From Escherichia coli O157:H7 (GTDB taxonomy: Bacteria; Pseudomonadota; Gammaproteobacteria; Enterobacterales; Enterobacteriaceae): a stretch of 64,000 bases of DNA. The stretch lies in the NCBI RefSeq assembly GCF_013167455.1, contig NZ_CP038328.1; one strand, 5' to 3'. Below are positions 45,001-51,000 of this stretch, piece after piece. Made by a program: the position numbers. Within the stretch, counting starts at the first letter, position 1. Each line of letters begins with the position of its first letter.

Positions 45001-48000
45001 GATCAGTGAGTCTTATCGCGGCCCGAAGCTATGACTGAAAGAAGGCTGGATACAGAATTGCAACAATTTGGCAATGTCAGAACACAGAAGCTTTGCAAGC
45101 AGGTGAAAGGTTATGTCTAGCAAAAGGAGTATATCAGAATATATCTACTGATGTACAAAACACAACAATAGCTTCATGATATATAAATACGTGATGACGA
45201 GTGGTACTCCGCATGGTTATTTAACTTCTAAGCACCACTAATGATCCTGAGCAACTTCGTATTTGGGCCATTACCATGGAGTAGAAAGCTGTGTCTGAGA
45301 ATGCAGAATTTGAGAAAAGAATTCGCTTTCTTGGAGAGATTCTGAAAATGGCACGCTAACAACGTTTTGTTAAAAAATGTGAATTACTTGCCGGGGCTGC
45401 ATTTTCTATTCGAGGAGAATGTTGACGTAGATATTACAGAAATCTCAGCGCATCAGGATAAACTGCTACCTTAGGTCAACCACCAAAAGAAAATACAATA
45501 CGTCCAGTTTGTATGCCTTTAATAACACATCTTCTAAATGTTGAAGAATTATCCCGCCTGCTGAAGAACGTTGCTCTGAGTGTAATAAACCTTTTTATTC
45601 TTGATGATGTCAGCGAGAAGATGGAATATATCCCCGACTGGGTCGTGGTTACCCGGTTAAACATCTGGTGGTGCTAATAAATCTGGCAAGTCACATTCTG
45701 TTGAATGCTGTGACAGTGCCTTACCGAGAGAGCGAAATTGTGGTGTTCTAGTGCATAGTCGCCACCATTCCGGATAATTCTATTACGTTGTTTTACAAGT
45801 TCTTTTACAGCGCAGATCTGTCGCTGACGTTGAATCAATAGCCTGGATTTCAGAACACAATGCCCGTTTGCTGGTTGTTCGTAAGCGTACAGCGAGGGCC
45901 GTATTGACGGGGATGTGTTATTCAGCTGGCAGTGCTATGCGCCACGGAAGCAGTTCGCTGACCCGGTTGACCGGCCAGTCTGCTATGACGCCAAGCACAT
46001 GGCGAAGGTAGCTTTCTGGATCCACGTCATTCAGTTTGCACGTCCCGATCAGGCTGTACAGTAGCGCTCCCCGCTCACCACCATGATCAGAGCCGAAGAA
46101 CAGGAAGTTTTTACGACCCAGACTGACCGCCCGCAGGGCATTTTCAGCGATGTTGTTGTCGATTTCCACCCAGCCATCGTTCGCATAGTACGTCAGTGCC
46201 GGCCACTGGTTAAGTGCGTACGCGAACGCCTTCGCCAACTCTGAGTGTCGCGACAGGGTCTTCATCTTTTCACGCAACCAGCTTTCCAGGGATTTCAACA
46301 ACGGTTTCGTTTTTCGCTGACGTTCAGCAAGCCGCTGCTCTGCCGGCATTCCCCTTATATCCGCCTCTATGGCGTACAACTGACCGATCTGCTCCAGGGC
46401 TTCTTCCGTCAGTGCTGACGGGATGCGGACGTGCACATCGTGGATCTTTCGGCGGGCATGAGCCCAGCAGGCAGCTTCCGTTATCCCACCATTGCGATAC
46501 AGCTCGTTGAACCCGGCGTACGCATCCGCTTGCAGCACACCGCTGAAGCAGGCAAGATGAGTCTGCGGATGGATGCCTTTTCTGTCCGGGCTGTAAGCGA
46601 ACCACACTGCAGGTGCCAACGCTGACCCTGCATTGCGGTCATCACGAACATACGCCCACAACCGCCCGGTCTTCGTCTTCTTATTACCCGGCAGCAGTAC
46701 CTGGACCGGGGTATCATCGGCATGGAGTTTGCCGTCAGTCATGACATAGCCATGAAGCGCCTCTTCCAGCGGAGACAGCAGCCGGCAGCATGCATCCACC
46801 CAGCCCGACAGCAGTGAACGCCTCAGCTCCACACCTTGCCGGCCGTATATTTCTGACTGGCGATACAGCGGGGTGTGCTCTGCATACTTCGAGGTCAGCA
46901 CGCGGGCCAGCAGCCCCGGTCCGGCGATACCCCGCTCGATGGGCCGCGAAGGTGCAGGTGCCTGCACGATGGCATCGCACTGAGTACAGGCATGTTTTTC
47001 CCGTACCGTCCGGATAACCCGGAAGGCGCTACGCATCAACTCCAGCTGTTCGGCGGTATCCTCGCCCAGATAGCTCAGTGAACCGCCGCAGTTCGGGCAG
47101 CACGGCGCCGCAGGCAACAGTCGCTTTTCGTCACGGGGTAGTGATTCAGGGAACGGCTTACGGGTGCGGGTCTGACGCAACGGACGCTGTACTGCCGGGT
47201 CATACACCCTACCAGTCAGCGTATCGCTCTCTTTCTGAAGCCGGTTCAGATCGGCTTCCATTTGTGCGATACGGCGGGAGACTTTTTCGGAACGACTGCC
47301 GAAGTTCATCCGGCGGAGTTTATCCAGCTGCGCCTGCAGATGGTCTATTTCGCGCTCCCGGTTGCTCAGCTTTTCCTGCAGGGCGTGGATCAGCGCTTCC
47401 TGTTCGGCCAGGCGCTGTTTCAGCAGGAAGATGTCGTCAGAAGAGATGTCGTTCATAAGCCCGTATTTTACCGGGCTTATTCTGTGACAACCAGGATAAA
47501 GAGATTTACAGCATGGTCAGGGAGGTCAGCAGCCGCTTAGGCTGTCGCCAGTCGATACCTTCCAGCAGCATCGCCAGCTGCGCCTGCGTAAGGAACACTT
47601 TGCCATCACGGGCTGACGGCCAGGCGAAGCGCCCACGCTCCAGCCGTTTGGTCAGGAGGCACAGTCCGTCACCGGTGGACCACAGCAGTTTAACCTGACT
47701 GCCGCTGCGGCCCCGGAAAATGAAAACATGGCCGGACATGGGATCGTCTTTCAGCGCCGTTTGTACTTTCGCAGCCAGGCCGTTGAAGCCATTTCTCATA
47801 TCGGTGATACCGGCAACCAGCCAAATTTTGGTCCCGGAAGGTAACGGGATCATCGCTTCAGTTCCTGTATCAGCAGAGTCAGGAGCTTTTCGCTGACATT
47901 GCCATTGAAGCGGAGCGTCCCGTGCCGGAACGTTACCTCACAGCTGATACTGAGGGTTTCCGGGTCCTCTGCGAGCGATTCTGGCTGTTCGGCAGCTGCA

Positions 48001-51000
48001 TCGAGAGTCACAGGAAGTAGCTGGGGGCTCTCTGAAGAAGGTAATAGCAGCTTTCCCTCGCGCCATTGTTGTCGCCATTTGAACAACAGATTGGCGTTAA
48101 TGCCATTTTCAAGAGCAAGTTTTGAGATGGATATCCCGGGTTCACAGGAGGCAGCAACGAGCTGCTGTTTAAATTCGGGAGGATAATTAGGGCAGCCTTT
48201 TCGCCTGCCGGGAGTCACATTTTTCTGCATATCTGATACTTTGGTTCCCACTACTTATTTGGTGGACACCACTTTGTCTAATTCGTCAGATTCTGACCAG
48301 ACGGTTCAGGCTGTACGCTTACGGTTGTTCCGGCAGTAGCATTAATTCATTATCTGAATGAAATGTGTCAATCCACAGAAACCGCTGTCAATGACGCATT
48401 TTGTCGGACGTTAACACGAGAAAGTCTGGCTATTCCGTAATGCCATCTTATTTCGTAATGGATTGAGAATGCTGGATTTTTAATTATATTACGCGCAGTA
48501 TTAATCGCGTAAATGTTTTGCGGTCAGCAACGGTGGGGGATCCATTGTTCTGTTCAATGAATACCATCATACATTTGAATCAGGAGTCGGTATGATGATT
48601 TTGGTGACGGGGGGCGCACGGAGCGGGAAGAGTCGCCACGCAGAGGCGCTTATTGGGGACTCTTCACAGGTTCTGTATATCGCTACCTCGCAAATCCTTG
48701 ATGATGAGATGGCTGCACGGATAGAACATCATCGGCAAGGCCGCCCGGAGCACTGGCGCACAGTGGAGCGCTGGCAACATCTTGATGAATTAATTCATGC
48801 AGACATTAACCCGAATGAGGTTGTGTTGCTTGAATGCGTTACCACAATGGTGACTAATCTGTTGTTTGATTATGGCGGCGATAAAGACCCTGATGAATGG
48901 GATTATCAGGCGATGGAACAGGCGATTAATGCTGAGATTCAGTCGTTGATTGCTGCCTGCCAACGTTGCTCCGCAAAGGTTGTATTAGTGACTAACGAAG
49001 TGGGAATGGGGATTGTGCCGGAGAGTCGTCTGGCACGACATTTTCGTGATATTGCCGGGCGGGTAAATCAGCAGTTGGCCGCTGCGGCAAATGAAGTATG
49101 GCTGGTGGTTTCGGGTATTGGAGTAAAAATCAAATGAGTAAATTATTTTGGGCGATGCTCTCATTTATTACGCGTCTGCCTGTACCGCGTCGCTGGTCCC
49201 AGGGACTGGATTTCGAGCATTATTCTCGCGGTATTATTACTTTTCCTTTGATTGGATTATTGCTTGGCGCGATTAGCGGGCTGGTCTTCATGGTGCTGCA
49301 GGCATGGTGTGGCGCACCACTGGCGGCACTGTTTAGCGTACTTGTGCTGGTGCTGATGACCGGGGGATTCCATCTGGACGGCCTCGCTGATACCTGTGAT
49401 GGCGTATTTTCTGCACGTAGCCGCGATCGCATGTTGGAAATCATGCGTGATAGCCGTTTAGGTACCCACGGCGGTCTGGCATTGATTTTTGTTGTACTGG
49501 CAAAGATTTTGGTGTTAAGCGAGTTGGCTCTGCGTGGCGAACCGATCCTTGCATCGCTGGCGGCAGCATGTGCGGTCAGCCGCGGGACTGCCGCATTATT
49601 GATGTATCGTCATCGTTATGCCCGGGAAGAAGGGCTTGGCAATGTGTTCATTGGCAAAATTGATGGGCGACAAACCTGCGTCACACTCGGCTTAGCCGCT
49701 ATTTTTGCTGCCGTATTATTGCCGGGTATGCATGGTGTGGCTGCTATGGTGGTGACGATGGTGGCGATTTTCATCCTCGGTCAGCTTCTCAAACGTACGC
49801 TGGGCGGGCAAACCGGCGATACGCTGGGAGCAGCCATAGAGCTTGGTGAACTGGTCTTCCTGCTGGCACTGCTATAAAGAGACGTGACATGCAAACACTT
49901 GCCAATTTACTGAATACGATCCCTGCCATCGATCCTGCCGCTATGTCGCGTGCACAACGGCATATTGACGGGTTACTCAAACCTGTTGGTAGCCTGGGAA
50001 GGCTGGAGGCGCTTGGCGTACAACTGGCGGGAATGCCGGGGTTGAATGGCATACCGCATGTGGGCAAAAAAGCGGTACTGGTTATGTGTGCCGATCACGG
50101 CGTCTGGGAGGAAGGGGTCGCTATTTCCCCAAAAGAAGTGACAGCCATTCAGGCTGAAAATATGACCCGCGGAACAACCGGCGTGTGTGTGCTGGCAGCA
50201 CAAGCGGGCGCTAACGTCCACGTAATTGATGTTGGTATTGATACTGCTGAGCCTATCCCCGGGCTTATCAACATGCGTGTCGCACGAGGTAGCGGCAATA
50301 TTGCTTCAGCTCCGGCAATGAGTCGCCGTCAGGCTGAAAAGTTACTTTTGGACGTCATATGTTATACGCGGGAGCTGGCAAAAAACGGTGTCACGCTGTT
50401 TGGTGTAGGTGAACTGGGGATGGCAAACACGACACCGGCAGCAGCAATAGTCAGCACAATCACTGGCCGGGATCCTGAAGAAGTGGTTGGGATTGGCGCA
50501 AACCTGCCGACAGATAAACTGGCTAATAAAATTGATGTTGTGCGCCGGGCGATTACGTTGAATCAGCCAAATCCGCAGGATGGCGTTAATGTTCTGGCAA
50601 AAGTGGGTGGATTTGATTTGGTCGGAATGGCTGGCGTGATGTTAGGCGCTGCTTCCTGCGGTTTACCCGTGTTGCTGGATGGATTTCTTTCTTATGCTGC
50701 TGCGCTCGCAGCCTGCCAGATGTCTCCTGCAATCAAACCGTATCTCATTCCTTCTCACCTGTCGGCAGAAAAAGGGGCGCGTATAGCGCTGTCGCATTTG
50801 GGGCTGGAGCCTTTTCTCAATATGGATATGCGTTTAGGTGAGGGGAGTGGCGCAGCTCTGGCGATGCCCATCATCGAAGCTGCTTGTGCGATATACAACA
50901 ACATGGGCGAACTTGCTGCCAGTAAAATTGTTCTACCGGGGAATACGACTTCTGATTTGAACAGTTAAAAACGAAAAGTCTGATAAAAGCTATACTTAAC

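Follow-up and report, generated by a model that had tools for sequence, protein, structure and literature searches.

An intact ISEc8 copy upstream of cobU, and yoeD as the end of an ISEc23-like element, in Escherichia coli O157:H7

We examined a stretch of 64,000 nucleotides from Escherichia coli O157:H7 (NCBI RefSeq assembly GCF_013167455.1, contig NZ_CP038328.1), which we call the window. It carries a complete insertion sequence (IS) of the IS66 family at 45881-48322 and, 13 kb away, a transposase fragment known in K-12 as the pseudogene yoeD. We argue that the complete element is the full-length catalogued ISEc8, landed just upstream of cobU, and that yoeD is the end of an ISEc23-like element. 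We put the probability of this reading at about 0.97. The ISEc8 copy and the yoeD remnant are both real and ordinary, and they are already known, since they are annotated in reference genomes. At the very least, the ISEc8 copy is a lineage marker of typical O157:H7, and several annotations in this region should be corrected.

Identity and anatomy of the ISEc8 copy

The standard for calling an element ISEc8 was more than 95% nucleotide identity over its full length, which is the ISfinder convention, and the comparison was made with copies labelled by RefSeq as 'IS66-like element ISEc8'. The window copy is 100% identical to these over 2442 bp, the EDL933 copy included. Identical copies are found in the chromosomes of O157:H7 as well as on plasmids carried by O157 strains. 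The open reading frames (ORFs) of ISEc8, L0013, L0014 and L0015, are 133, 115 and 512 aa long (PMC2762410). These sizes agree with the window's three genes, so together with the sequence identity they make the element ISEc8. RefSeq starts tnpA at an ATG (Table 1), and an alternative GTG start at 48251 gives the 133 aa of L0013. Nothing contradicts this identification.

The element also has everything expected of the IS66 family: the domain set of TnpC, the tnpA-tnpB-tnpC layout, inverted repeats and an 8-bp target duplication. TnpC matches DDE_Tnp_IS66 (PF03050) over profile positions 1-283 of 284 with E = 2e-106. It also matches PF13007, PF13005 and PF13817, and all four domains exceed their curated cut-offs. 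tnpA and tnpB overlap by ATGA, and a 49-nt spacer separates tnpB from tnpC. IS66 family elements end in imperfect terminal inverted repeats starting 5'-GTAAGCG, features reportedly set out by Han and colleagues in 2001. The tips of the window copy begin in the same way. It starts at 45881 with GTAAGCGTACAGC, and the 13-base reverse complement of this sequence closes it at 48322. GTAAGCG, followed after twelve bases by CCGT, is common to the four IS66-family tips of the window. The initial annotation, made without database searches, had already drawn a complete 2442-bp IS66-family element with three genes here, and its coordinates are exact.

Table 1. Positions of the features discussed, in window coordinates
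Feature	Position	Strand	Basis or remarks
ISEc8 (IS66 family), intact, 2442 bp	45881..48322	-	100% identity to annotated O157:H7 copies
tnpA, accessory gene, 126 aa from RefSeq ATG	47850..48230	-	Pfam HTH_Tnp_1, E = 1.8e-12
tnpB, accessory gene, 115 aa	47506..47853	-	Pfam TnpB_IS66, E = 1.2e-38, full length
tnpC, DDE transposase, 512 aa	45918..47456	-	Pfam DDE_Tnp_IS66, LZ_Tnp_IS66, zf-IS66, DDE_Tnp_IS66_C
Inverted repeat, tnpC-proximal end, GTAAGCGTACAGCGAGGGCCGT	45881..45902	.	13/13 perfect, 18 of first 22 bases alike vs other end
Inverted repeat, tnpA-proximal end, reverse complement GTAAGCGTACAGCCTGAACCGT	48301..48322	.	Sequence comparison of ends
Left target-duplication copy, GGTTGTTC, 8 bp	45873..45880	.	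Single copy in empty-site genomes
Right target-duplication copy, GGTTGTTC, 8 bp	48323..48330	.	Single copy in empty-site genomes
Target: remnant of ancestral cbi ('cobalamin biosynthesis protein') pseudogene	45847..48440, split into 45847-45880 + 48331-48440	+	RefSeq annotation; PM06121 homology
Right-end remnant of ISEc23-like IS66-family element, 159 bp	32644..32802	+	Nucleotide and protein identity to ISEc23; PF13817
pduV 3' remnant (real part of K-12 'yoeF'), abuts left edge of island	32390..32572	-	Pfam PduV-EutP; tblastn to SCU-485 PduV
IS66-family right-end remnant, ISCro1-like, 105 bp	26655..26759	+	tblastn with ISEc8 TnpC, E = 6e-4
IS629/IS1203 (IS3 family), 1310 bp, three copies	42656-43965; 53723-55033; 62567-63877	- (first copy)	Mutually 100% identical

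ISEc8 is a common element. Matches of some kind are present in 4230 of 5426 complete E. coli genomes, and an O157:H7 genome has about 8-17 matching places. IS629 and ISEc8 are the predominant IS of O157:H7; Sakai and FRIK804 have nine ISEc8 copies each, and 8 sites are common to both (PMC7430833). The window copy is apparently functional, judging from its three ORFs and both ends. For the chemistry of its transposition, we infer a conventional route. TnpC would bind and cleave the GTAAGCG... terminal repeats, aided by TnpA, which has a helix-turn-helix, and by TnpB. The element would then go in at two cuts staggered by 8 bp, whose repair would duplicate the target. All three ORFs are reportedly needed, according to the same work of Han and colleagues and in keeping with DDE and IS66 elements in general.

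Insertion site and distribution among strains

The 8-bp target duplication claimed in the initial annotation stands up well. GGTTGTTC is exact at both flanks, and the chance of an identical 8-mer on both sides is about 1.5e-5. An empty-site probe was built by joining 600 bp from the left flank, including a single GGTTGTTC, to 600 bp from the right flank. This reconstructed site aligns as one piece in 3192 E. coli genomes, with a single copy of the 8-mer. O157 strain 493/89 is one that has the empty site with a single copy, at 99.9% identity to the probe. A 400-bp probe spanning the left ISEc8 junction found that junction intact in 300 genomes. Among the matches listed, every single-piece one that bears the junction and has a serotype label is O157 or O157:H7, EDL933 among them. 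The insertion at the cobU site thus seems to be restricted to the lineage of typical O157:H7. Strains can be typed by it, since ISEc8 is absent at this site in 493/89 and most other E. coli.

The target is a gene that had already been broken. RefSeq annotates it as a pseudogene with its N-terminus missing. The annotated length is 144 bp where the site is empty; where it is occupied, 108 bp are annotated on the right side of the IS. Strain PM06121, which has pduF and pocR, provides a comparison. There the target stretch forms the 3' portion of an ORF of 145 aa, between a cobalamin riboswitch and cobU. The window's homology to PM06121 begins at 45846 and runs on across the IS, reading ...EHNARLL on one side and VVPAVALIHYLNE... 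on the other. ISEc8 would thus have landed in a non-functional cbi remnant in an ancestor of typical O157:H7. cobU starts at 48592, 262 bp from the element; the tnpA end is the nearest and the transposase genes are directed away from cobU. Between the IS and cobU, a scan for promoters gave a single sigma-70-like site (48463-48490, 10/12 matches). We make no claim about cobU expression, because shuffled sequence yields as much.

Another ISEc8 insertion has occurred close by. The dog isolate Z0117EC0051 has a separate 2442-bp copy, 99.5% identical and in the same orientation, 64 bp nearer cobU (L010, 3465-5906). This copy has a target duplication of its own, the 8-bp GTCAATGA on both flanks, at a site equivalent to window 48387-48394. 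In K-12 an IS5 lies about 130 bp to the left of the ISEc8 site, inside an older IS4-family remnant. Together the Z0117EC0051 copy and this IS5 suggest that the zone upstream of cobU is IS-prone. One can imagine a stronger version, where the few hundred bases upstream of cobU are a preferred landing zone for ISEc8, as there are two independent insertions in unrelated lineages, 64 bp apart and in the same orientation. We consider this rather doubtful. If it were true, target choice in the IS66 family would be regional or orientation-specific, following for example local DNA structure or a protein-bound site, and not random.

The yoeD remnant, the island and the alternatives

The transposase fragment lies where the initial annotation put it, between yeeX (tmaR) and yeeW. 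Its coding part, 32644-32772, translates on the plus strand as GTCRLNGIDPEAYLRHILSILPEWPSNRVDELLPWNVVLTNK up to a stop codon. It is the 129-bp K-12 pseudogene yoeD (b4642) of the cryptic prophage CP4-44. The translation matches Pfam DDE_Tnp_IS66_C (PF13817) with 57.5 bits against a cut-off of 30, and it aligns to the C-terminus of ISEc8 TnpC with a tblastn E of 3e-13. It is thus a C-terminal piece of a diverged IS66-family transposase, as had been claimed, of ISEc23 type and not ISEc8. The coding limits stand as first drawn, but homology reaches further. IS66-family nucleotide homology covers 32644-32802, which takes in the last 42 tnpC codons, the stop and 30 bp that end in the terminal repeat ...GACGCTTAC. 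Positions 32773-32802 carry this repeat, which ends in CGCTTAC.

The remnant is 96.3% identical over 162 bp to the 3' end of a full-length ISEc23 on plasmid p20AR1039A (L005, 1128-3659, 2532 bp), and a further plasmid copy of ISEc23 type matches it at 99.4%. The identity includes the terminal repeat and the alignment stops at the tip of the element, although only the last 159 bp can be compared. At 96-99% identity to ISEc23-type copies, the remnant must be the truncated end of a different family member rather than one decayed by mutation, which is how it was first described. Its left edge (32643/32644) is a deletion breakpoint and not an IS end. A 711-bp block with the remnant is present in 3187 genomes from diverse lineages, including K-12, B and O104:H4. 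The truncation is therefore much older than the O157-specific insertion of ISEc8, and the initial annotation was right about this order of events. We infer that the rest of the ISEc23-like element was deleted long ago at the pduV-proximal edge of a CP4-44-like island, separately from the ISEc8 event. Its right end persists as yoeD in most E. coli that have the island.

It is worth considering other explanations of the fragment. It could be a decayed ISEc8, or the relic of an earlier ISEc8 insertion, given that the fragment and ISEc8 have in common the C-terminal domain of the family and, at the tip, the motif GTAAGCG...CCGTATTGA. We give this next to no credence. The remnant is only about 65% identical to ISEc8 in nucleotides, and 24 of 39 aa agree with ISEc8 TnpC against 41 of 42 with ISEc23 TnpC. 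The nucleotide figures, set against 96-99% for ISEc23, rule a decayed ISEc8 out. The full-length transposases of ISEc8 and ISEc23 are themselves distinct, with 312 of 503 aligned residues alike. A very improbable scenario has the opposite strand as the real gene. K-12 annotates a coding sequence, yoeF, that overlaps yoeD, and its product matches Pfam PduV-EutP. The 118-aa ORF, on the minus strand at window 32390-32746, would then be a EutP/PduV family gene and the transposase reading a chance antisense one. However, PduV homology is confined to ORF residues 57-112, at or below window position 32572. PduV residues 87-147, relative to the full-length protein of strain SCU-485, are all that is kept. 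The ORF is made of 34 codons antisense to yoeD, codons over 71 bp (32573-32643) and 61 pduV codons. The first 34 lie opposite sequence with 96-99% identity to ISEc23 ends, non-coding terminal repeat sequence included. Since the PduV part ends at 32572 and the N-terminal codons are antisense to an ISEc23-like end, we read 'yoeF' as a chimeric ORF across a deletion junction. Its PduV-like part is confined to the last 61 codons, and these fall beyond the fragment; the fragment itself does not align to a non-IS protein.

One can also argue that this copy of ISEc8 is a fossil, inactive and no longer mobile, that became fixed in the lineage. The insertion is common to about 300 genomes at one site, so this copy has not moved away. 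Yet its three ORFs and both ends are intact and it is 100% identical to the sequence at 8-17 other places per O157 genome. Copy sites vary between strains, with 8 of 9 common to Sakai and FRIK804 (PMC7430833), and an independent insertion has occurred 64 bp away in another lineage. We consider a fossil improbable. It must be noted that some points weigh against our own account of the ISEc8 copy and yoeD. The intactness of the copy and its 100% identity to others are only consistent with activity. RefSeq labels TnpA and TnpB just 'accessory', and their part in the mechanism is putative. Strain 93_0495 has, between exactly the same two breakpoints, a 1311-bp segment that holds an IS110-family transposase fragment (L007, 4355-5665) in place of the 159-bp remnant, and this complicates a single-deletion history for yoeD.

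The limits of the CP4-44-like island bear on whether the two elements belong together. In the pdu-positive strain SCU-485 a full-length pduV adjoins tmaR/yeeX. Since pduV homology to this strain stops at 32572 and PM06121 homology starts at 45846, the island must be 32573-45845. By this comparison it replaces the pdu-pocR-cbi stretch. An alternative set of limits, 32564-48403, came from the island-free strain EC45 and was dropped, as comparison with the pdu-positive strains shows that EC45 has a larger secondary deletion. The claim that both IS66-family insertions are in the same island is therefore only roughly right. It holds for the yoeD fragment, and ISEc8 sits in the cbi remnant 35 bp outside the cobU-proximal junction when pdu-positive strains are the comparison. 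The K-12 annotation would put it differently. Its CP4-44 feature (2066020-2078748) corresponds to window 48336-32573 and would place the ISEc8 site 5-6 bp inside. An IS4-family transposase pseudogene remnant, the equivalent of K-12 yeeH/yoeG, is found on the plus strand at 45650-45838, and in K-12 the IS5 is inserted within it. It ends 8 bp before the right junction of the island (45845/45846) and 42 bp before ISEc8.

Neighbouring elements and comparison with known systems

The island has homologues of yeeW, cbtA, cbeA and yeeT, along with genes for RadC, an antirestriction protein, a DUF932 protein, a patatin-like protein and YjcZ. It also holds the IS4-family remnant and a TonB-dependent receptor gene, which is split by the IS629/IS1203 copy at 42656-43965. 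The window's IS629/IS1203 copies have about 95.8% identity with the one that EDL933 carries at this locus. The genes from RadC to YjcZ, the patatin-like one encoding a phospholipase, are on a 6.15-kb segment (34543-40694) with three ORFs that have no Pfam match. EDL933 lacks this segment and has an IS3-family element at that position instead, so the window's strain keeps the fuller island. None of EDL933, PV15-279 and FSIS11705876 is collinear with the window across the island.

A third IS66-family remnant, omitted from the initial annotation, is found at 26655-26759. It contains the last ~22 tnpC codons and the terminal repeat, reading ...DWPANRVRDLLPWKVDLSAQ up to the stop, then ATCAATACGGTTCTGGCGAGCCGCTTAC, and ending ...GAGCCGCTTAC. 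Its identity to the 3' ends of ISCro1-family elements is 95-98%, and RefSeq O157 genomes leave it unannotated. The remnant belongs to the right arm of a prophage of Stx2c type that resembles phage 2851 and is integrated in sbcB. Window 1-28515 is the late region and right end of this lambdoid prophage, 98.1% identical over 25 kb. EDL933 lacks this prophage here, and collinearity with it starts at 28516, inside sbcB. The ORFs at 25699-27467, just past the tail-fibre genes, presumably resemble type III effector cargo. In the prophage at 8181-8773, a unit of about 162 bp is repeated in tandem, and its copies are 93-97% identical. A composite transposon, in which the solo right ends pair with ISEc8 ends and mobilise the intervening 13 kb, was rejected. 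The tips at 32802 and 26759 face right and there is no left-facing tip to their left, which argues against such a transposon.

We see little consequence of these elements beyond correct annotation. The ISEc8 insertion adds one more IS event to the junction that arose when the pdu-cbi region was lost from E. coli and a CP4-44-type island came in. The yoeD remnant should be extended to the IS tip at 32802, yoeF should be marked as chimeric, and the IS66-family end in the neighbouring Stx2c-type prophage should be annotated.

The closest known system is ISEc8 of EDL933 (L0013-L0015). The window copy is like it in sequence over 2442 bp, in its three ORFs, in its ends and in its 8-bp duplication. 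In EDL933 the insertion is annotated at the same locus and the element itself has no differences from the window copy. The islands do differ, since the window has the extra 6.15 kb and an IS629 copy in the TonB-receptor gene. K-12 yoeD is the same 129-bp coding remnant between yeeW and yoeF/tmaR. The K-12 annotation ends at the stop codon, whereas the IS-derived sequence in the window is 30 bp longer. The p20AR1039A copy of ISEc23 aligns to the remnant over its last 159-162 bp. About 6% of the element is left in the window, without the left end, tnpA, tnpB or the catalytic domain. ISCro1-type elements have a 3' end like that of the third remnant, which in the window is only a 105-bp solo end.

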